Origin: Squalus acanthias
Lineage: Eukaryota
Direction of reading: 5' to 3'
Assembly (NCBI GenBank): GCA_030390025.1
Contig: JASTWF010000034.1
Span: forward strand, 3,100,001 to 3,164,000
DNA length: 64,000 nt
Shown here: piece by piece, positions 1-14,949 of the stretch
Position numbering within the stretch: the stretch's first letter is position 1
Layout: every line of letters starts with the position of its first letter
Notes under the pieces: generated by a model
What the model was told of the DNA's origin: nothing
Databases searched by the model: none
What the model saw: the letters and a program-made list of their open reading frames with translations, nothing else
Position numbers and translations under genes: made by a program

Positions 1-615
1 ACCCGCAAATGCTGCAGCAGGAAAGAATCAGGAACCATTCAAAAAGATGTTCCTGACCCAGCTCCACTCTTTAGTTAAAACCACACTGGGCATAGCCCTG
101 AGGCCCGCCGATCAGTAGACAGATATAGAGATTAACGTTCAAAGATCCTGGGAGAAGTTAACAGCCCAGTTAAAGGTGAAGTAAACACCCACGGCAAAGA
201 ACCAGTGTCAGCGGTGGAGGGATCTAGGTACTACCCCTTTAGAGGACAGTGGTTTAATTGTGAGAAGGAAGGTCACCTCGCAAAACACTGCAGGACACCC
301 AGACAGGCACCGGACCACGATGCAACGCATAGATAGATCCCGAAGGATGAACCTGAACCCTCTGGGGTGGTACAAAAATTGGCTCAGTTAGTTAGCCTTT
401 TAAAAAAGGATGAATTCAAGTCCTCTGGGACGGATCAATGATTGGACCAGTTGATAACCTTCATGAAAGCCCAAATTGTCACGGGGTGTGGGGGGGGGGG
501 GGTGCAAAATCATTTACCGGTGCACGCAATCGCCAATGCACACCCATTGGGAATGCAAATTCCTATTGTCAATGCACACCCATTGGGGGGACCGCTCCAA
601 GGATCCACCCTATGA
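1..615 (+). pseudogene. gag: gag C-terminal remnant with CCHC-type zinc knuckle
   Basis: 241-294 translates RGQWFNCEKEGHLAKHCR (CX2CX4HX4C with the first C replaced by W). The frame runs through stops at 334 and 439 to TGA 613-615. Confidence 0.75.
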
Positions 616-1000
616 CAGGGTTTGGCCCCCAAAGATTGGTCGCAAGTGGGGTTCCGATATGATGGTAGCGGGAGACCAGTAGTCCTTGTTGTCTTAAAAG
701 GGGACCGGCAGCAGATTATGATTATAGACACTGGCTCAGCCGTTACCATCATCCACACCCTATACCCTGAACGCCATCCAGCTGCGGGCAAGGGCTGTAG
801 GCCCTTAAAGGGTTTATTGGTGATACAACCACCGCGTATACAGGGAAGGCCTCTGAACTTCAGTTGGGAGGCCTCACCTGTAAGGTCCCAGCGACGATGC
901 TGATGACCACCCCCGACGGAAGGGGAATTTTAGGGACTGATGTGTTGGATCAGTATGGCGCGGTAATAGATTACAATCGGGACTGTGTTTGGATGGGATT
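616..1000 (+). pseudogene. Retropepsin aspartic protease domain (frameshifted)
   Basis: GRPVV...IMIIDTGSAVTII in ORF 622..903 and GILGTDVLDQYGAVIDY in ORF 864..1280. Confidence 0.85.
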
Positions 1001-1189
1001 GAGAAATAATGCAAAAGTGATAGAAATTTCCGATGCTCACTCGGTTTTTACTATTATAATGCTATCCGAGTTTGATCCTCCGGAAGCCATAAATGAAGCT
1101 GTGGCAAAACTAATTCAGGAACACCTAGCGATGCTGGCCACGTGCAAGCACGATTGTGGAAAAATGGGAGGCGAAGATTCTATTGAGGG

Positions 1190-2050
1190 ACCCCCCCACT
1201 CATTCACTAAACAGTACCCCATCCCAAGAGAGAATCACCCGAGACAACATAAAATCACTAGTCGAGAAGGGTGGTGTTAGGACAGGCATTTCCACAACCA
1301 ATTCACCCACATGGCCGGTTAAAAAGCCTGATAGCAGCTGGCGACTGACTTCTGATTACAGAAAGTTAAATTCTGTAACGCCAGCCTGCTCACCGTTAGT
1401 AAGAGAAGCTCCCACCATATTATCTCAAATTCCTGCTGGTTCCAAGTACTTCTCGACCCTCGACATCGCCAATTGATTCTGGAGTATCCCTGTTAAAAGG
1501 GAGGACCAATACAAATTCGCGTTCACATTTGAGGACCAGAGCTACACCTGTCTCAGGGGTTCCACAATGCCCCCCATGATCTTCCACAAAAGAATGGCTG
1601 CAGTTTTAAAAGACTTTTCCTGCCCTACCTGCTTGCTACATTATGTAGACGATCTACTGCTGGCAACCGATAACATGGAGGAGCATCGGTCCCTTTTGCA
1701 TGAACTGGTGACATTGTTGGCTCAGGCGGGACTAAAGGTGAATCCCCGTAAGGCTCAGTTGGTAAAAGAACGGGTCACCTTTCTGGGAATGTCCATTTCT
1801 CCAGAGGGATCGTCTCCCGACTCCCACAAGGTGGAGATAATACAGCGACTAACATGACCCTCTTCCAAAACAGCCCTACGATCATTCTTCGGTTTGGTGG
1901 GCTACCAAAGGGACTTGATCCCAGGCGTTGCAGAGTGCGCAAACCCCTGTATGATTTGATAAAACTGCAGGGTGATGACATACTCCCGGCATGGACTGAT
2001 TCTCACACCCAGTCCGTGGCCAAATTAAAAACTGCAGTGATACAGGTCGC
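1190..2050 (+). pseudogene. pol: Reverse transcriptase domain (fragmented)
   Basis: KQYPIP, NSPTWPVKKPDSSWRLTSDYRKLN, YFSTLDIAN*FWSIP..DQYKFAFTF, HYVDDLLL, GLKVNPRKAQL..VTFLG. Confidence 0.92.
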
Positions 2051-2059
2051 ATGTATGAT

Positions 2060-2400
2060 TCCTCCGGTCCCACGCAGCCCTTCCATTTGGAGGTCGGGGC
2101 CACAGAAAAAAGCCTCGCCGCAGTTCTGTGCCAAACGCGAGCTGATCGACTACTGTCCATTGCATATGCGTCTGGAATCCTGCAGGGGGCAGAAAAGACG
2201 TATACCGCGTGCGGGCGCCACCTGCTGGCCGTCTTCTGGGCGGTACATCATTTTACCTTTATTTCTGGCTGCAAGCTACCATCCTTCACAGTGCTCATAC
2301 GCCTCTGAGCCTACTGATGAAACCTGGATATTCGCTAGTTTCCTCGCAGCGCCTCAGCAAATGGACATTGGAATTTTTAGAAAGAGACATTGTTATCATT
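2060..2400 (+). pseudogene. Degenerate Ty3/Gypsy-type RNase H (tether/connection domain)
   Basis: PFHLEVGAT..SLAAVLCQ..IAYASGILQGAEKTYTACGRHLLAVFWAVHHF..LHSAHTPL keeps the Gypsy RNase H scaffold but lacks the usual TDAS, EKE and TDH acidic residues. Confidence 0.8.
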
Positions 2401-2520
2401 TCCAAACCCACCACATTGGTGCCACAGTTTCTGGTTTATGCGGGGGAACCAAATGAATGTCCGCTACCCCTGATTAACTTTGAGACCCATCCTGTGCAGA
2501 AAGAGCCCATACAGGGAGCC

Positions 2521-2927
2521 CCAGATGTCTACATCGATGGGTCCTCATATCACATCGAGGGATCCCCCCACACCGGGTATGCTGTGGTATTGCCAGAGAG
2601 AACCGTCCAGCGATGATGCAACCGACAGTCCACACAATATGCAGAAATCGCCGCACTTCTAAGCACCGTGATAGAAACCTCAGATAGACCCGTGAATATT
2701 TGGTCTGATAGTGCCTATGCCATAAACACCATGCTCTCCTTGCTCCTATACCACAAAAATGACTACCGTAAAATTGACGGTAACGAACTGGTCCATGGGG
2801 CCTGGTTACGCCTGCTCTGATCATACCTTAAACAGCGATCCCATCCCTGTTTCATAGAAAATGTAGCAGCCCATAGAAAAGGTGTCCACAAAGTGAGGGA
2901 AATTCCAGAGCAGACAGAGCAGCCAAG
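2521..2927 (+). pseudogene. Second, retroviral/cellular-type RNase HI domain
   Basis: DVYIDGSS (2524), AEIAA (2641), WSDSAYAI (2701), VAAH (2863-2874), GNSRADRAAK (2898-2927, shifted frame): complete D-E-D-H-D set. Confidence 0.88.
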
Positions 2928-3137
2928 GTCACTGCGATTAATGGGGCGATAGAGGATATAGTTGTTGAGCCCTGCAATGGCTCCCCAACAGATCACCTAG
3001 ATTTAAATTCCCTGCAGCAGCAATACTGGCCATACGCCGTTGTAAGCGCCTGGCACGAGGAAGGCAGACCCCTTCCTCAACCGATAGCCTGGGCCCCCAA
3101 TACCAGACTAGCCACTGCCCCATACTCAGCGGAGTAG

Positions 3138-5019
3138 TTGGTGATGTTCAAAAGAAAGCCATACGTCTGCCCGATGTTGTGTGTTCCACCAGAGCTGGGT
3201 CAGGAACAACTGTCCCTCTTTCACACCCACACCACAGCAGGGCACTATTCGGCCCTGGCAATCTTCAATAAGGTAGCATCCAAAGCTTGGTGGTCTTCCA
3301 TGAGGGAAACAATCAACCAAATGTGGCACGATGCCGACCGTGCCTGCAGCCCAATCCTCCCATGTGCACTAACCCAGCCTTGCTTCAAAGTGCGTCCCCA
3401 GCTCAAGGGCCATGGACTCACCTCCAAATTGGGCCACTTCCACAGGCGCGAGGCAATTCTTGGCGTGCCCTAGTGGTGGTGGATCAATTCACAAAATGGA
3501 ACGAAGCATTCCCCTGGCGCTCCAACACCGCAATCACGGATGACAAAACACTATTAAATCATATGTTTTGTAGGTGGGGTGTACCGGTAAAAGTGGACAA
3601 GGGAATACACATTAAATGTTTGGACACTGAGTAATACAGAGGAACACAGGTACCTTGAAGTGCATGTCCACAGATCCCTGAAGGTAGCAGGCCAGGTAGA
3701 TAAGATGGTTAAGAAGGCATACGGAATGCTTGCCTTTATTAGTCGTGGCATAGAATACAAGAGCAGGCGGGTTATGCTTCAACTGTATAAAACAATAGTT
3801 AGGCCACAGCTAGAGTACTGCGTGCAGTTCTGGTCACCTCATTACAGGAAAGATGTGATTGCACTAGAGAGGGTACAGAGGAGATTTACAAGGATGTTGC
3901 CGCTAGTAGAGCATCTTAGCTATGAGGAAAGACTGGATAGGGTGGGTTTGTTTTCCTTGGAACAGAGGAGGCTGAGGGGAGACCTTATTGAGGTATTTAA
4001 AATTATTAAGGGCATGGATAAAGTGGATAGAAAGGACCTGTTACCCTTAGCAGAGCGGTCAAAAACCAGGGGGCACAGATTTAAAGTAATTAGTGGAAGG
4101 TTTAGAGGGGTTTTGAGGGGAAATTTCTTCATCCAGAGGGTGGTGGGGGTCTGGAACTCACTGCCTGAAAGGGTGATAAAGGCAGGAACCCTAACCACAT
4201 TTAAAAAGTACTTGAATGTGCACTTGGGATGCTCTAACCTGCGGGGCTAAGGACCAAGAGCTAGGAAGTGGGATTATGCTGGATAGCTCTCTGTTGGCCG
4301 GCGCGGACACGATGGGCCGAAATGGGCTCCTTCCGTGCTGTAACTTTCTATGATTCGATGATTCTATAGACAATATCATGGTTCGCACTTTACCGGTAAG
4401 ATTTTTACCCACCTGCAGGATATGTTGGGGGTAAAACACAAACTACATGTTGCTCACCACGCCTAGTCGTCCGGAGGCGCCTAAAGGAGGAACAGGACCC
4501 TCAAGTAAATGTTAAAAAATTGTGTGCAGCCCACCCGACTCAATGGGCCAACATGCTACCAATGTTCTTAATGGCAATGAGGTCCATATCTCATAAAACA
4601 GCAGGAGCCTCCCCATATCAGGCCATGACGGGGAGACTCATGAGAACGCCAGGCCAGCTAACACTAACGGGGATGAACACCTTGACAATGGAACCATGTA
4701 GTTCCAATTGGCTGTAACAGTTGGTAGATCACACAGATCAGATGAATCGATTTGTGGCCACGAAATTGGGGAAGTCAAAAAGACACCTTAAAAGGTACTT
4801 TGACAAGAAAGTCCGTCCCTTTGAGTATCAGATGGAGGACATCGTAATGATTCCAAATTATGGGAAAAAGAAGCATGCCTTTGAGCCCAGGTTCTGGGGA
4901 CCGCATACGATTATAGACCGATTGAATCCCGCGGTTTATTTCATTCATTTACGGGGGAAAAAGGTGTTAAGTACAAGAAATGGTATCATATTAACCAGTT
5001 AAAAACTGCCAAAAAATAA
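3138..5019 (+). pseudogene. Integrase (HHCC, DDE core, GPY/F C-terminus) split by a CR1 insertion
   Basis: FHTHTTAGHY..WW..C..C, GPWTHLQI, LVVVDQFTKW, RWGVPVKVD|insert|HGSHFTG, RNRTLK, SPYQAMTGR, PRFWGPH, KWYHINQLK; stop at 5017-5019. Confidence 0.88.
3601..4368 (+). mobile_element. 5'-truncated CR1-clade LINE nested in the integrase
   Basis: ORF 3660..4250 is a CR1 ORF2 C-terminus (LYKTIVRPQLEYCVQFWSP, LERVQRRFTRM, RRLRGDLIEVFK, TRGH). Tail TTCTATGATTCGATGATTCTAT. GACAA flanks both sides (3596-3600, 4369-4373). Confidence 0.93.
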
Positions 5020-5243
5020 ATACTACACTGATCTTGTTTCCCAAAGTACCATGATACGGATACAGATGACACACAACGATGCCATAAACAGCAGAGCTAT
5101 ACAAAAGCCAGGTGCCAGCCCATGGTGGGAAACAATGTAGAATGTAGGACAACACCTCTGGCTCAGAACCCTCTCAATGCTTATGATATGCGACCCCTGG
5201 GGAGATAAATCAAAGGAGAGGTCAATAAGGTTCTTTCCCCCTC

Positions 5244-5256
5244 AAGGCGGGGAATC
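5244..5256 (+). promoter_or_regulatory. Polypurine tract of the retrovirus-like element
   Basis: AAGGCGGGGAATC immediately before the TGTAAG LTR start. Confidence 0.65.
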
Positions 5257-5943
5257 TGTAAGAATAAAAATATATGTTTTGTATGTGTGATGGACTCGAG
5301 ACTATTAATATAAGATGTATGTAATAAAGATAAATTTGATGTGTAAGGATTTCACCTGGGCGAGCAGAACTCAAGGCAATGGCACAAAACATAACAAAGG
5401 AAACCTGCATAACAGGATAACCACAACAAAGACACCATCGAAATTCACCATCGAAACTCAAGAGCCACTAAACGGTGTCAACAAACAATTAACTTAAGCA
5501 AGAAATGGTACCAGCCACTACAGACAGACACATGTTCAAAGGAAAGCCAATCAAGAACTGCCATGAAACTGAGACCCAATCCTGGGGTCTTAGCAATTTA
5601 GACCAGAGACAATTGACTTAAAAATATATAAAACAAGGAACTCAAAGGCTCTCTCTCTCTCTCTCTCTCCGGATTGCCACGCAGAAAAACAAGAAGCCCC
5701 CCCTCTACAGACTGGACCAAGAAGCAAGGAAATAGTCCGCGTGCATTGTTGATTCAGGGAAGTACAAGTTTCTGTAAATCTAACCCATTACCTTACGTGT
5801 TGTAATCGAGTAGAGTCCATAAATAAAAGGAGGCTATTGTTCTGATGTGCATGAGTGTGTGCGTTTAATTAATATATTCCAAATTGTTTCAAAAGAATTG
5901 GTCTTGCTGGCAATTAAATGACATTCGAAATATAATGCTTACA
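5257..5943 (+). repeat. 3' LTR (687 bp) of the retrovirus-like element
   Basis: Begins TGTAAG, ends CTTACA (inverted termini). TATA-like TATATAAAA near 5624, (CT)n at 5649-5669, AATAAA at 5822. Satellite starts directly after. Partner LTR is not in the window. Confidence 0.8.
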
Positions 5944-8900
5944 ACTCTCTGCACGGGGGAATAAAGTTACAGTTAAAGTTAGCTTGACATGATGCCCTCT
6001 ACACCAGGGAATAAAGTTACAGTTAATTGTTAATTTGACATGATGCCCTCTGCACCGGTGAATAAAGTTACAGTAAATTGTTAATTTGACATGATACACT
6101 CTACACCAGTGAATAAAATTACAGTCAATTGTTAATTTGACATGAAGCCCTCTACACCAGGGAATAAAGTTACAGTTAATTGTTAATTTGACATGATACC
6201 CTCTACACCAGGTAATACAGTTACAGTAATTTTTTTATTTGACATGATAACCTCTACACCAGGGAATAAATTTACAGTTAATTGTTAATTTGACATGATT
6301 CCCATTACACTGTGGAATAAAGTTACAGTTAATAGTTAATTAGACATGTTACCTCTGCACCGGGGAATAAAGTTACAGTTAATTGTTAATTTGACATGAT
6401 ACCCTCTACACCAGGGAATAAATTTACCGTGAATTTTTAATTTGAGATGATAACCTCAACACCGGGGAATAATGTTTCAGTTAATTGATTACTTCGACAT
6501 CATGCCCTCTACACCAGGGAATAAAGTTCAAGTTAGTTTCTAATTTAGACATGATGTCAGCTACACCAGGGAATAAAGTTTAAGTTAATTGCTAATTTGA
6601 CATGCTACCATCTACACCAGGGAATAAAGTACTAGTTAATTGTTAATTTGACATGATACCCTCTACAGCGGAAGCAAATTTACAGTTAATTGTTAATTTA
6701 ACATGATTCTCTCCACTGGGGAATAAAGTTGCAGTTAATTGTTAATTTAAACATTATACCCGCTACACCAGGGAATAAATCGGCAGTTAATTGTTAATTT
6801 AGATATGATGCCTTCTACACAAGGGAATAAAGTTACAGTTAATTTTTAAGTTGACATTTACCCAGCACACTGCATAATAAATTAACAGTTAATTGTTAAT
6901 TTGCCATGATACCCTCTACACCGGGGAATAAAGTTACAGTTAATTGTTAATTTGACATGATACCCTCTACACCGGGAAATAAAGTTACAGTTAATTGCTA
7001 ATTTCACATGATACCCTATACACCGGGGAATAAAGTTACAGTTGATTGTTAATTTGACATGACACCCTCTACACCGGGGAATAAAGTTACAGTTAATTGC
7101 TAATTTCACATGATACCCTCTACACCGGGGACTAAAGTTACAGTTGATTGTTAATTTGACATGATAACCTCTACACCGGGAAATAAAGTTACAGTTAATT
7201 GCTAATTTCACATGATACCCTCTATACCGGGGAATAAAGTTACAGTTAATTGTTAATTTGACATGACACCCTCTACACCGGGGACTAAAGTTACAGTTGA
7301 CTGTTAATTTGACATGATAACCTGTACACTGTGGAATAAAATTACAATCAATTGTTTATTTGACATGATAACCTCTACACTGAGGAATAAAGATAGTCAA
7401 TTGTTAATTTGACATGATATCCTCTACACCTGGGAATAAAGTTACAGTTAATTGTGAATTTAGATATATTACCCTCTACGCCCGGGAATAAATTTACTGT
7501 TAATTGTTAATTTAGACATGATTCCCCCTACACCATGGAATACATTTACAGTTAATTGTTAATTTGACAGAATGCCCTCTACACCGGGGAATAATGTTAC
7601 AGTTAATTATTCACTTAGAAATAATTCCCTCTACTACGGGGAATAAAGTTACAGTTAATTGTTAATTTGACAGGATGCCCTCTACACCGGGGAATAATGT
7701 TACAGTTAATTATTCACTTAGAAATAATTCCCTCTACTACGGGGAATAAAGTTACAGTTAATTGTTAATTTGACAGGATGCCCTCTACACCGGGGAATAA
7801 AGTTACAGTTAATTGTTAATTTGACAGGATGCCCTCTACACCGGGGAACAATGTTACAGTTAATTATTAACTTAGAAATAATTCCGTCTACTCCGGGGAA
7901 TAAAGTTACAGTTAATTGTTAATTTGACATGATGATCTCTACACCAAGGAATAAAGTTAAAGTTAATTGTTAATTTGACATGATGCCCTCTACACGGGGG
8001 AATTATGTTACATTTGTTTGTTAATTTGACATGATGCCCTCTACACTTGGGAATAAAGTTACATTCAGTTGTTAGTTTAGACATGATACCCTCTACAGCG
8101 GGGAATTATGTTACAATCAATTGTGACTCTGAAATGATACCCTCTACATCGGGGAATAAACTTACAATTACTTTTTAATTTTACACGATGCCTTCTACAC
8201 CGGGGAATAAAGTTAAAGTTAATAGTTAATTTAGACATGAATCCCTCTACACCGGGGAAAAAGTTACAGTTAATAATTAATTTGACATGATACACTCTAC
8301 ACCAGGGAATAAAGTTACAGTTCCTTGTTAATTTAGATATGATACCCTCTACACCGGGGAATAACGTTACAGTTAATTGTTATTTTACACATGATATCCT
8401 CTACACTGTGGAATAAATTTACATTTAATTGTTAATTTAGACTTGATATCCTCTAAGCCAGAGAAAAAAGTTACAGCTAATTGTTAATTTGACAGGATAC
8501 CCACTACACCGGGGAATAAAGTTACAGTTCATTGTTAATTTGAAATGATACCCTCTAAACCGGGTAATAAAGTTACAGTTAATTGTTAATTTTATATGAT
8601 ATCCTGTAAACTGGGGAATAAAGTTGAAATTAATTATTTATTTGACATGTTGCACTCTAGACCGATGAATAAAGTTACATACAATGGTTAACTTAGCATG
8701 ATATCCTGTAAACTGGGGAATAAAGTTGAAATTAATTATTTATTTGACATGTTGCACTGTACACCGATGAACAAAGATACAGCCAATTGTTAATTTAGAC
8801 ATGATTTCCTCTTCAGCGGGGAATAAATTTACAGTTAATTTTTAATTTAGACATGATACCCTCTACACCGGGGAATTATGTTACAGTTAATTGTTAATTT

Positions 8901-9703
8901 GAAATGATGCCCTCTACACCGGGGAATGAAGTTACCGTCAATTGTTAATTTGACATGATACCCTCTACAAGGGGGAATAAAGTTACAGTTAATTTTTAAG
9001 TTGACATGAAACCCTCTACACCGGGGAATTATGATACAGTTAATTGTTCATTTGAAATGATGCCCTCTACACTGGGGAATGAAGTTACAGTCAATTGTTA
9101 ATTTGACATGATACCCTCTACAACGGGGAATAAAGTTACAGTAAATTGTTAATTTGATATGATACCCACTGCACCGGGGAATAACATAACAGTCAATTGT
9201 TAATTTAGTCATGATGCCCTCTGCACCGGGGAATAAAGTTTCAGTTAAATGTGAATTTATCATGATTCCCTTTACATCGGGGAGTAAAATTTCAGTTAAA
9301 TGTTAATTTTACATGATACCCTCTACATCAGGGAATAAAGTTATAGTTAATTGTTAATTTAGACATGATTCTCCCTACATCAGGGAATAAAGTTATAGTT
9401 AATTGTTAAATTGATATGATGCCCTCTACACCGGGGAATAAAGTTACAGATAATTATTATATTGACATGATACACACTACACGGGGGAATATAGTTACAG
9501 TTCATTGTTAATTTAGCCACGATAGCCTGGACACTAGGGAAAAAGTGACAGTTAATTGTTAATTTTACATGATGCCCTCTACACCGGGGAATAAAGTTAC
9601 AGTTGATTGTTAATTTGACATGATACCCTGTACAATGTGGAATAAAATTACAGTCAATTGTTTATTTGACATGATAACCACCACACGTGGGAATAAAGAT
9701 ATT
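5944..9703. repeat. 51/52-bp satellite, diverged monomeric block 1
   Basis: Head-to-tail monomers GACATGATACCCTCTACACCGGGGAATAAAGTTACAGTTAATTGTTAATTT(A); local 102-103-bp dimer duplications near 7570-7880 and 8600-8760. Confidence 0.97.
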
Positions 9704-10466
9704 GGCCCAGAAATTTGTCCGAATACGGGAGAGTACGCACTGTGTACTCACCCATATTCGGTACCGAAGTGCCGGTTTCCTGCATGCACTGCGCATGCGC
9801 GGGAAACCAGCACTTCCGATATTGCGAAGGGGGCGGTTCCTAAGTGAACCGCGTGCTCACTACAGGCTGTGCGCGCGCAGCACACTTAGTTTTTTTTCAG
9901 ATTTGAACGCGAAGGTAAGTGTTGAAGATTTTACACATGAAGAAAGGAGGCGTAAGACCCCCTTTTAACAAGGTAAGTAGTTAATTAAGTAGTATTTTAA
10001 TTTTTTTTCAACAGGTTTATCTTTTTTAGAGACTTTAAGGAAAGGTAAGTTTATTTTTATAACTTTTAAAAAGAATTAAAAAAATTTAAAAAAATTAAAT
10101 TTTTGTTTAAAGTGTTTAATTTATTTAACTCTAGTTATTTTATTAATGTGATGATTTTTTTATAAAATAATTGAGGTTTAGCTGTTCTTTTGGGGGCAAG
10201 TTGTATTCACAGCTTTGACAGCTCTTCCTGTCAAAACTATTAATGAAAGATGGTGTGCTGCCGTTGGCTCTAACTAGCCCACGTGATCCCAGAGGTCGCA
10301 TCGAACTAACTGCGCCTCTGGGACACGCACACACTGCGCGCCGGCACCAGGGAGAGGCCGAGGAACTGAAGTTCGTGTGGGCCAAAACCATAAAGGCAGG
10401 CGCAGAGTGCTATATCGCGGGGGATCCTTACCCCCGCGGCAACCATCGAAGTCCAATTTCTGGGAC
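9704..10466. mobile_element. Non-autonomous TIR DNA transposon (MITE-like, 763 bp), probably PIF/Harbinger
   Basis: Left end GGCCCAGAAATT; right end reverse-complements to GTCCCAGAAATT (11/12 match). 3-bp duplication ATT at 9701-9703 and 10467-10469. No transposase ORF. Superfamily inferred from the 3-bp TSD and GG-starting TIR. Confidence 0.75.
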
Positions 10467-10468
10467 AT

Positions 10469-10703
10469 TGTGGCGGAACGCCACCTAAATGGGCGCAATC
10501 CACTTGACCGTCCGTGGACAATAAATCGGGCACCTTGCCTTTAAGGCGCATGCCGCCTTTAAGGGAGGAAAAACGGAGTGGGCGTGGCCTCTGAGTTTTT
10601 GCAGAGAAATGTTGCAGCAGCCATTTTAACAGAGATGTGATTAAAAGCTATGTGTTTCACCTATTGACTCGGCCTCAATTCGTGCTTCACGGCAGCCACA
10701 ACA
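10469..10703 (+). repeat. 5' LTR (235 bp)
   Basis: TGTGGCGGAACG...GCCACAACA; aligns without gaps to 12955-13189 with 15 mismatches by hand count. Confidence 0.95.
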
Positions 10704-10704
10704 T

Positions 10705-10716
10705 TGGTGACCCCGA
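10705..10716 (+). promoter_or_regulatory. Primer-binding site complementary to tRNA-Trp
   Basis: TGGTGACCCCGA matches the first 12 nt of the tRNA-Trp PBS TGGTGACCCCGACGTGAT known from avian leukosis/sarcoma viruses. Confidence 0.85.
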
Positions 10717-10743
10717 TGCTCAGAATGTATTCCGAGCACTGCA

Positions 10744-12934
10744 ATGGTGGACACGAACGCAGTTTCCGTGAAACTGCCGGAGTTGTGGATAAACCAGCCC
10801 GAAGCCTGGTTTCTCCAAGCTGAGTCCCGATTCCGGCTGCAACGTATCACCACAGATGGTATGAAGTACGACTACCTTGTCACATCACTCGGTAGCTCCA
10901 CAGTTACGAAGTTCTGCACAGCGCTGCAGAACCCACCAGAGGGGTCAAGTATGCACATCTTAAAGCCACGCTCCTTTAAAAATTTACGGCCTCGACATAC
11001 CAGCGAAACTGCCACCTCCTCAACCTTCCAGGCCTCGGTGATGCCTCACCGTCAGACCTCCTCTCCCACATGCTCTCCCTCACCGACGAGAGCCCACCCG
11101 GATCCCTCTTCTGCACGCTGTTCATCCGCCAGCTACCTCTCAGCATCTGCCCAGCGATCGTGGCGTCCGGCCTCACGGACCTGGAAGCCCGGGCAGATGG
11201 GGCCGACAAGCTGTTGTCTGCTCACTCCAGCCGCGACATCACTCCGGACCTGGCAGACACTTCCTGGGCGCGTCCCTCACCGGCCACCACGTGGCCACAA
11301 GGCCCAGCACCGGGCTCACGAGGCCTTCGCGCCCCACTAACCCGGGCCACTGTTACTTCCACAGACGGTTCGGCGCCAGGGCACAACGGTGCACACCTCC
11401 CTGCTCTTTCAAGTCCACCCCCGTAACTACCCCGCGATGGCCGTGGGCCACGCGGGCTCCCTGCTGTATGTCACGGATGACAAAACTTGCCGCCGGTTCC
11501 TATGCGAATCTGGAGCTCAGCACAGCATCATCCCGGCCTCCTCCCTCGACATCCAAAAGGGCAAACGTGGACCGGCGCTGGCTGCTGCTAACGGCTCGGA
11601 CATCCGGACATACAGCACCTGCACAGTCACCCTCGACCTCGCTGGTCACCGCTACCGATGTGAGTTCATCACTGCCAAGGTGCTCTCCCCTCTCATCGGC
11701 GCGGATTTGCTGTGCGCCCACGGCCTACTGGTAGACATCCCTCGACACCACCTCGTGGACATGAACTCCATATCCCCCATCCTGGGCGCCATGGCCCCCG
11801 TCAACCCGCCGACATGGCGTCACAGTGCCACGCCTGGGCCACGGATGACTACTCGGCACTCCTGCCCGAATTCCCGGCCCTTAGCAATCCGAAATTCTCC
11901 ACGGAGGCCGCCAAACACGTGGTGGAACACTTCATCCCCACCACAGGCCCCCCAGTGTATGCCCACACCCGCAGGCTGGACCCGGCCAAACTGGAGATCG
12001 CGCGGACCGATTTTGCCTGCATGGAACAGCTCGGCATCATCAACCGCTCCAACAGTCCCTGGGCATCCCCACTCCACATCGCCCCCAAACAAGGCGGGGG
12101 TTGGCTCCCCTGTGGGGATTACCGCCGCCTCAACGACGCCACCACCGCTGACATCGCCAGAGCCTTCGTCAGCACCTGGGTCGCACGGTTCTGCATCCCC
12201 TCCGACATGACATCGGACAGAGGTCCGCAATTTACCTCTGAACTCTGGACTGCCGTCGCACGCAATCTCGGGGTGACCATTCACTGCACCACAGCATAAC
12301 ACCCCGAAGCCACCGGACTGTGTGAGCGGTTCCAGAGATCCTTGAAGGCATCTCTTCGAGCCAGCCTCCAGGACGGCGCCTGGACCGACCGACTCCCGTG
12401 GGTCCTCCTAGGCCTGTGTACAGCAGTTAAATAAGACCTCCACACATCGGCAGCAGTGCTCGTGTACGGTCAGCCGCTGCGCGTACCCGGCAATTTCCTG
12501 CCCACCGCCACGACACCCTGGTCAGCCGACCAGCAACACCACGACTTCGCCTGACCGGCGCTACTGTTCGTCCCGGTGCCTGACATGGCGAACCCACCTC
12601 ACACGTCCCACTAAGCCTGCACGTGGCACGGTTCGTTTTCGTCCGGCACGACGCCCACCACGGACCTCTTCAACCCCCATACGACGGGCCCTACAAGGTG
12701 CTACAGGCTGGGGACAAATTTTTCACCCTGCAAGTGGGCGACAGGATCGAAAAAATGTCGGTTGACTTACTTAAGCCAGCACAGTCGGAGCCCGGTGAGC
12801 AGGTCCCGGTAGCTCGTCCACCGCCAGTTCACCCGGCTGCTCCACGCCCGGCCGTTCCACGTCCACCGGCGTCCTACAAGAGCCGCTCCAGCCGGCCCAT
12901 CAGACCGCCGCAACATCTCGTTCACACCACCTAA
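10744..12934 (+). pseudogene. gag-pol remnant of the Gypsy element
   Basis: AVSVKLPELW..PEAWFLQAE (gag), CYFHRRFG..RCTPPC (knuckle), FLCESGAQHS and IGADLL (protease), WASPLH..CGDYRRLN (RT start), TSDRGPQF and LQPPYDGPYKV (integrase). Confidence 0.9.
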
Positions 12935-12942
12935 GTGGATTC

Positions 12943-12954
12943 TGGGGGGAGCTG
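12943..12954 (+). promoter_or_regulatory. Polypurine tract of the Gypsy element
   Basis: TGGGGGGAGCTG directly before the 3' LTR. Confidence 0.75.
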
Positions 12955-13189
12955 TGTGGCGGAACGCCACCTAAACGGGCGCATTCCACTTTTCCGTCCG
13001 TGGACAATAAATCGGGCACCTTGCCTTTAAGGCGCATTCTGCCTTTAAGGCAGGACAAAAGGAGTGGGCGTGGCCTCTGGGTTTTTGCAGAGAAATGTTG
13101 TAGCAGCCATTTTACCAGAGATGTGATTAAAAGCTATGTGTTTCACATATTGACTCGGCCTCAATTCGTGCTTCGCGGCAGCCACAGCA
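12955..13189 (+). repeat. 3' LTR (235 bp)
   Basis: TGTGGCGGAACG...GCCACAGCA followed by ATAT and resumed satellite. Confidence 0.95.
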
Positions 13190-14949
13190 ATATAGTCAAT
13201 TGTTTATTTGACATGATACCCTCTACACTGAGGAATAAAGATAGTCAGTTTTTTATTTGACATGATACCCTCTACACCTGAGAATAAAGTTACAGTTAAT
13301 TGTTAATTTGACATGATTCTCTCTACACCGGGGAATAAAGTTACAGTTAATTGTTAATTTGATAGGATGCCATCTACACCGGGGAATAATGTTACAGTTA
13401 AATATTAATTTAGACATAATTCCCTCTAATCCTGGGAATAAAGTTACAGTTAATTATTTATTTGACATGATACACTCTGCTCCAGGGAAAGAAATTACAG
13501 TCAATTATTAATTTGACATTATACCCTCTGCACCGGGGAATAAAGTTACAGGTAATTGTTAATTTAGACATGATTCCCTCTAGACCAGTGAATAAACTTA
13601 CAAATAATTGTTTATTGGATATGATTCCCTCTACACCAGGGAATAAAGTTTCAATCAATTGCTAATTTGACATGTTACCCACTGAACCTGGGAATAAAGT
13701 TACAGTTAATTGTTAATGTAGACATGATTCCCTCCACACCGGGGAATAAAGTTACAGTTAATTGTTAATTTAGACAGGATGCCCTCCACACCAGTGAGTA
13801 AAGTTACAGTTAATTTTAAATTTGACATGATATCCTCTACACCAGAGAATAAAGTTATAGTTAATTGTTAATTTGACATGATACCCTCTACACCGGGGAA
13901 TAAAGTTTCAGTTAAACTTGAATTTGACATGTTACCCTCTACACCAGTGAATAAACTTAACGTTAATTGTCAATTGGACATGATATCCTCTATATCGGGG
14001 AATAAATTAGCAGTTAATTGTTAATTTGACAAGATATCCTCTACACCGGGAAAAAAGTTGCTGTTACTTGTTAATTTGGACATGTAACCCTCTACACCAG
14101 TGAATAAAGTTACAGTTAATTGTTAATTTAGATATGATACCCTCTACTCCGGGGATTAAATGTACAGTTAATTGTTAATTTTAGATGATGACCTGTAAAC
14201 CGGGGAATAAAATTAACGTTAATTGTTAATTTGACATGATAAACTATGCACCGGGGAATAAAGTAACAGAAATTGTTAATTTAGATATGATAATCTATAC
14301 ACCAGGGAATAAAGTTACAGTTAATTGTTAATTTAGACATGATGCCCTCCAAACCGTGGAATAAAGTTACAGTTAATTGTTAATTTAGACATGATACCCT
14401 CTACACTGTGGAATAAAATTACTGTTCATTTTTAGTTTGACATGATATCCTCTACACCAGAGAATACATTTAGTTAATTATTAAATTGACATGATGTCCT
14501 CTACACCTGGGGTTAAAGTTACACTTAATTACTAATTTTGAAATGATGCCCTCTACTCCGGGAAATAAAGTTACAGTTAATTGTTAATTTTGACATGATG
14601 CCCTCTACACCGGGGAATAACGTTATGTTTAATTGTTCATTTTCTCATGATACCCTTTACACTGGGGATTAAAGTTGAAGTTGATTGTTCATTTGACAAG
14701 GTAGGCTCTACACTGTGGAGTAATGTTACATTGAATTGTTTTTTTTGACATGAAACCTCGACACTGGGCAATAAAGATACAGTCAATTGTTAATTTGAAA
14801 TGATACCCTCTACACCGGGGAATAAAGTTACAGTTAATTGTTAATTTAGACCTGAAACCCTCTACCCTGGGGAATAAAGTTGCAGTTAATGGTTAATTTG
14901 ACAGGATTCCCTCTACACCGGAGAATAAAGTTACACTTAATTGTTAATT
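13190..14949. repeat. 51/52-bp satellite, diverged monomeric block 2
   Basis: Same monomer, resuming in phase with block 1 (GAATAAAG-ATAT-AGTCAATTG). Confidence 0.97.

Follow-up and report, generated by a model that had tools for sequence, protein, structure and literature searches.

A broken, env-less provirus in Squalus acanthias with a reverse transcriptase of canonical retroviral affinity, probably in the snakehead retrovirus-like grade

A dead proviral copy lacking env occupies the beginning, up to about position 5943, of the window, the 64-kb stretch of Squalus acanthias DNA analyzed here. Its reverse transcriptase (RT) belongs with those of canonical retroviruses, likely in the class III grade around snakehead retrovirus (SnRV) known as clade Huo, and its tether and RNase H are of the ordinary retroviral kind. 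We put the probability of this reading at roughly 85%.

The copy is a plus-strand LTR retroelement. Its domains, recognized by Pfam and tblastn, follow the order gag-protease-RT-tether-RNase H-integrase-purine tract-LTR (Table 1), and the succession protease-RT-tether-RNase H-integrase within pol is that of canonical Retroviridae. The window opens within the element, with the 5′ LTR and most of gag lying before its start; a contig from run X16 reaches 303 letters upstream of that point. tblastn revealed many stops and frame changes throughout pol and no second copy of the element within the 64-kb window. Between gag and protease, an 18-bp direct repeat is found in 534-586, and a G-run occupies 488-502.

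Table 1. Features of the broken provirus, with window coordinates
Feature	Position	Strand	Basis and remarks
gag 3′ end, degenerate zinc knuckle at 250-291	136..336	+	Pfam zf-CCHC E=0.011, below cut-off
Aspartic protease (DTG 727-735) with linker, interrupted by frame changes	650..1230	+	tblastn of P0003 and P0009; Pfam gag-asp_proteas E=0.05
Reverse transcriptase, YVDD 1642-1653	1222..1947	+	Pfam RVT_1 E=3e-17; in-frame stops, one stretch locally out of frame
Tether, a Gypsy-type RNase H in degenerate form with G/H/A in the catalytic columns	2069..2400	+	Pfam RT_RNaseH_2 E=1.8e-14, alignment; frame change near 2269
RNase HI-type domain with D-E-D-H-D residues	2521..2935	+	Pfam RNase_H E=8.3e-12; stops 2614, 2818
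Integrase: zinc-binding part, LINE-split core, C-terminal GPY/F-type module (GPH)	3138..5019	+	Pfam Integrase_H2C2 E=1e-7, SH3_Tf2-1 E=0.001; tblastn
LINE 3′ fragment, very high-copy, inserted in integrase core	3600..4374	+	Summed depth about 1000x flanks in X1
pol stop	5017-5019	+	
237-bp spacer without env, purine tract 5244-5254	5020..5256	+	
Probable 3′ LTR, 687 bp, ends TGTAAG / CTTACA, AATAAA at 5822	5257..5943	+	

Two RNase H-like domains follow the RT, a dead Gypsy-type scaffold coming first, as an earlier note on this DNA had proposed. Profile searches recovered both: Pfam matched the tether at 2000-2305 with RT_RNaseH_2 and with RT_RNaseH (E=1.8e-12), and a downstream RNase_H match spans 2146-2895 when stops are read as X. 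In the alignment, the three catalytic columns hold D/E/D in 13/13 Gypsy RNase H rows, as against G/H/A in the window, and a complete D-E-D is found in the tether of none of the 48 retroviral or lokiretrovirus (Loki) rows. A dead tether is the rule in retroviruses, and what is seen here is the ordinary retroviral layout. The earlier note had taken the doubled RNase H as the mark of a retrovirus-like lineage rather than an ordinary Gypsy. According to the available portions of PMC7947760 and PMC9040795, a tether with an RNase H is common to canonical retroviruses, Loki, and Odin; because the arrangement is normal for all three groups, it marks no unusual lineage. The second domain had been described as retaining an intact D-E-D-H-D set. 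All five residues are indeed present, namely, D (2536), E (2644), D (2707), H (2872), and D (2913), but the two in-frame stops interrupt the domain and the final Asp sits in a different frame. As judged from its sequence, the second RNase H of the window copy is predicted to be nonfunctional.

The two further motifs on which the earlier note relied, a CCHC knuckle in gag and a GPY/F tail in integrase, survive in degraded form. A knuckle remnant is present, but Trp occupies the first Cys position and the profile match stays below the cut-off; the tail module is likewise present but reads GPH, and its match is also below the cut-off. The combination distinguishes the copy from foamy viruses, as had been pointed out. 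SnRV possesses both a CCHC Gag knuckle and a GPY integrase tail, and the accessible text of PMC4299795 describes some SnRV/Ovex1-related ERVs that carry a zinc finger in Gag together with a GPY/F-like motif.

Relatives were retrieved by an RT search that gave six matches among 732 candidates (top matches being Latimeria at 53%, Logan protein P0004 at 51%, and Aquarana at 50%), by a full HMMER search that used P0006 as query (best 150 matches), and by a profile search (best 120 of 403). The closest among the matches listed was a Xenopus tropicalis Pol, P0009 (UniRef100_A0A803JYW4), with 62-64% RT identity; tblastn of P0009 gave 61% identity in RT over 245 aa with two stops, and identity to the window was 48% over the C-terminal half of the tether and the RNase H. 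RT identity of the window was 53% to P0004, 51-55% to five other near relatives, 40% to SnRV, 34-40% to Loki (n = 6), 31-35% to foamy viruses (n = 5), and 26-35% to Gypsy (n = 10). SnRV is represented by P0034, so identified because it matches the SnRV row of a published alignment by eye and a viral record of 10,688 nt at 99%; P0071 corresponds to walleye epidermal hyperplasia virus 1. No match emerged among 270 candidates when the tether/RNase H piece was used in a word-index search, and searches for relatives found none for P0003 among viral contigs and none for P0009 among metagenome contigs. The intact Pol proteins P0003, P0005, P0167, P0168, and P0009 carry the database labels "NYNRIN-like" or "Gypsy retrotransposon integrase-like", which mask the retroviral identity of the Pols of this ERV group.

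For phylogenetic placement, a set of 268 RT sequences was reduced to 195 at 85% identity, followed by hand-picked subsets of 75, 59, and 31 rows. The labels Loki, class I, class II, Gypsy, and foamy were assigned on the basis of motifs together with the first tree; source names accompany few of the rows. Foamy-, alpha/beta-, and lentivirus-type RTs were taken from viral records and typed by motif; the trees contained neither Odin nor ERV-L sequences and no named ERV4 row. Loki signatures were recorded in 25 RT rows. FastTree analysis of the 195 rows placed the window inside a retrovirus clade of 63 rows, to which Loki was sister. The 75-row tree recovered the trio of window, P0009, and P0004 at 99/99 and the canonical retroviruses at 100/98, with Loki separate at 100/100 and SnRV joined to the wider group of the window at 88/66. 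With five foamy and five class II rows added, the 59-row tree again supported the canonical clade (100/98), Loki (100/99), and the trio (90/96). At the base of this tree is a polytomy that takes in SnRV, the group of the window, and several rows from amphibians, turtles, and coelacanth, and a subclade of foamy, class I, and class II sequences (94/85) excludes both the window's group and SnRV. The assignment in the earlier note to a retrovirus lineage rather than an ordinary Gypsy element is thus borne out by an RT nested in canonical Retroviridae at 100/98 in two trees, and its impression of a class III-like element deep in the tree agrees with the position of the RT within canonical retroviruses near SnRV-like relatives.

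The RNase H tree, unrooted and built on 148 columns, pairs the window with P0009 as sisters (99/95); a 98/94 split sets this pair, along with the foamy and Loki RNases H, apart from SnRV, class I, and class II. The portions of PMC7947760 and PMC9040795 at hand report that foamy and Loki RNases H make up one group and flag RNase H trees as unreliable. The integrase tree, in which the window fragments fill 40% and 28% of the columns and which lacks 7 of 69 proteins for want of an integrase core, is poorly resolved apart from setting Gypsy apart at SH-aLRT 99; one of the two window fragments pairs with P0009 (SH-aLRT 94).

The RNase H placement also fits a basal grade and bears on an alternative that refines the preferred reading more than it replaces it. 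The family could form a distinct lineage in the earliest-branching grade, the first to split off within canonical retroviruses and apart from SnRV, in which the oldest RNase H type (the ancestral foamy/Loki one) is kept alongside a GPY/F integrase and a CCHC Gag like that of Gypsy elements; it would still be a canonical retrovirus, in print already but lumped in clade Huo. The polytomy outside the foamy, class I, and class II subclade is in keeping with such a lineage, as is the foamy/Loki side taken by the RNase H. We nevertheless regard it as unlikely, considering that the RNase H signal comes from a short, unrooted alignment of a kind that the sources just cited distrust, that the 75-row tree weakly links the window's group to SnRV, and that clade Huo is strongly supported in the available part of PMC6001957. 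If the basal position were true, the env-less shark and frog members would come closest to modelling the first canonical retrovirus.

A lokiretrovirus or Odin-like element, which would extend that lineage to cartilaginous fish, shares with the window the tether and new RNase H and, by the accessible descriptions in PMC7947760 (Loki) and PMC9040795 (Odin), the same broad RNase H group, Odin also being env-less. An AU test (LG+G4, 31 rows) in which the window row alone was moved to Loki did not reject the move (p=0.10). The same type of test on the whole trio as one clade with Loki did (p=0.013), and in both RT trees the Loki clade forms without the window. Nor is the RT sister to Loki; it lacks, by eye, the signatures common to the Loki and Odin rows of a published alignment, and its identity to Loki falls far short of the 64% to P0009. 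The Loki env, related to the paramyxovirus F protein, has no counterpart in the window copy. The link to Loki and Odin drawn in the earlier note is already largely refuted, and we consider it very improbable.

Still harder to sustain is an endogenous foamy virus or crocodilian-type ERV4. Among PDB sequences, the window RT fragment is best matched by foamy-type Pol chains (E=4e-12), and the YVDD motif and the RNase H type point the same way; the foamy viruses, however, form their own clade at 100/100 in the 59-row RT tree, apart from the window, and their RT identity is low. Spumaretrovirinae have a Gag without the Cys-His box, of which the window keeps a remnant, and zinc finger and GPY/F, present though degenerate here, are absent from ERV4 and spumaviruses according to the part of PMC4299795 consulted. 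Least credible of all is a Gypsy retrotransposon that gained its second RNase H independently. Plant Tat elements did gain one in this way, and the missing env, the GPY/F-type tail, the UniRef naming of P0009 as "Gypsy retrotransposon integrase-like", and a single-row AU test (LG+G4, 31 rows; p=0.14, not rejected) could be read in its favor. Gypsy rows, however, are split from the window at 100/97-98 on RT and set apart on integrase, and none of the 16 Gypsy proteins tested carries a second RNase H. Metaviridae (Ty3/Gypsy) have a single catalytic D-E-D RNase H after the RT and an RT within Gypsy, and the window fits neither description.

The reading as an SnRV-like class III element is further supported by published ERVs. 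Clade Huo, as described in the accessible text of PMC6001957, comprises SnRV-related elements including class III ERVs, is found in all major vertebrate groups, and is strongly supported. By eye, P0009 and the window look like xe_tr_ERV2 in the first 400 characters of its record in the supplement to that paper, which by hand count shares 38 of 63 residues with the window in the N-terminal part of the tether, and P0004 looks like ca_mi_ERV1 over the same length of record. In the text of Fig. S2, Xen_tro_ERV2, Rh_ty_ERV2, Snakehead_retrovirus, and Ca_mi_ERV1 stand near each other under the Clade Huo label, an order of names and not a drawn tree; the available record of Rh_ty_ERV2, from whale shark, also shows a Gag with a CCHC knuckle and a protease start similar to that of the window (PMC6001957). 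The closest relatives of the copy probably match, as far as these partial sequences go, already published frog and shark elements. The RT nests in canonical Retroviridae beside proteins that by eye look like Huo elements, and so probably inside a described family, the outcome that the earlier note had named as refuting its reading; its suggestion of a possibly undescribed lineage is not supported.

The published elements also differ from the window copy. xe_tr_ERV2 (Xen_tro_ERV2) and P0009 share its domain order, replaced tether columns, and GPY/F-type tail, yet come from another host class, and the window copy is broken, with a LINE in its integrase. ca_mi_ERV1 and Rh_ty_ERV2 are, like it, cartilaginous-fish ERVs near SnRV, and the ca_mi_ERV1-like P0004 belongs to its trio, although RT identity to P0004 is just 53%. 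An env-bearing SnRV-like lineage, CmiERV lineage I, has been described in elephant shark, where a downstream env was required of CmiERVs (PMC4422223, in the part available); we infer that ca_mi_ERV1 and this lineage are likely the same element, whereas the window copy has no env. SnRV itself is a canonical retrovirus with tether and RNase H, YVDD, CCHC Gag, and GPY-type tail, the last two degenerate in the window, but it differs in RT sequence, in its weak grouping, in an RNase H on the far side of the 98/94 split, and in its long downstream ORFs. An env-less SnRV-like element is reported from a frog transcriptome in the accessible text of PMC4131045. XtERV-S was considered as a frog relative and rejected on the basis of its YIDD motif, dUTPase, and missing Cys-His box, as given in the available part of PMC8278194. 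No description of the exact family was found in the literature searched; it is unnamed in the accessible portions of PMC4977317, PMC10435555, PMC8278194, 10.1101/2024.07.05.601823, and 10.1101/2021.11.23.469661, and its peptide motifs had no match in 12 of the 14 supplementary files of PMC10435555.

No env was detected in the window copy: the 237 bp between the pol stop and the 3′ LTR matched no Pfam family in the three plus frames, and the downstream ORFs of SnRV had no tblastn match anywhere in the window. Since env loss is frequent among ERVs, the copy is filed as an env-less ERV. Contigs pass the pol stop unbroken to 5112, 5134, and 5188. The last of these positions is also where the run X16 contig (record 14) ceases to track the window and continues with 190 unlike letters, and a short hydrophobic stretch lies in one window frame around 5188. 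The break may mark the point of an env deletion, and a longer, possibly env-bearing form of the element may exist.

In an active ancestor, the tether would have served as a structural connection domain, as is established in retrovirology, and the C-terminal RNase H would have degraded the RNA template; the purine tract would have primed plus-strand synthesis, and integrase would have acted on the TG...CA ends. The element may descend from an env-bearing SnRV-like retrovirus that lost env secondarily, after which germ-line spread could have proceeded by retrotransposition or with the envelope of a helper.

The LINE fragment that splits the integrase core, which we take to be CR1/L2-like, gave no Pfam match. 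Contigs join 3599 to 4375 in 4/4 runs, so the LINE is a later insertion in the window copy. In the same number of runs (4/4), the LTR bins reach several times the depth of the internal bins, these figures, like that for the LINE in Table 1, being summed contig depths and not copy numbers; such an excess fits solo LTRs. Part of the region 1000-3590 is contained in 20 of 21 listed runs (9 studies, at least 9 coded organisms), none of which holds half its words. Contigs from organisms A and B span all 30 bins, with differences of about 3-16% in the long internal pieces. At least two species carry multiple copies of the family. None of the 21 listed runs is on record as an RNA run containing the element, a result that is uninformative on expression.

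On its own, the copy has little significance, the tether being a retroviral hallmark and class III ERVs abundant in cartilaginous fish, where they make up the majority of ERVs, with 2843 clade III loci in six chondrichthyan genomes (PMC11089739, in the part available). It adds to the SnRV-like grade one multi-copy family, env-less in the window copy. Because the RNase H appears to be of foamy/Loki type and the RT canonical, this grade could help to root the retrovirus tree and to date RNase H replacements.

The remainder of the window is largely repetitive. A 51-bp satellite begins at 5947, directly after the LTR, and seemingly makes up most of 5947-64000 at about 33% GC; a 300-nt reference recurs 285 times at 60% identity or more. 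At about 9650-13200, it is interrupted by a GC-rich Gypsy-like element with a DUF7041 Gag-like ORF (E=3e-12) and a protease, whose RT start runs directly into an integrase core (rve E=4e-4), an arrangement suggestive of internal deletion. The segment 14000-20000 differs from the satellite in its strong GC skew (up to 0.35), an AT skew of 0.23, and a GC content of about 41%.
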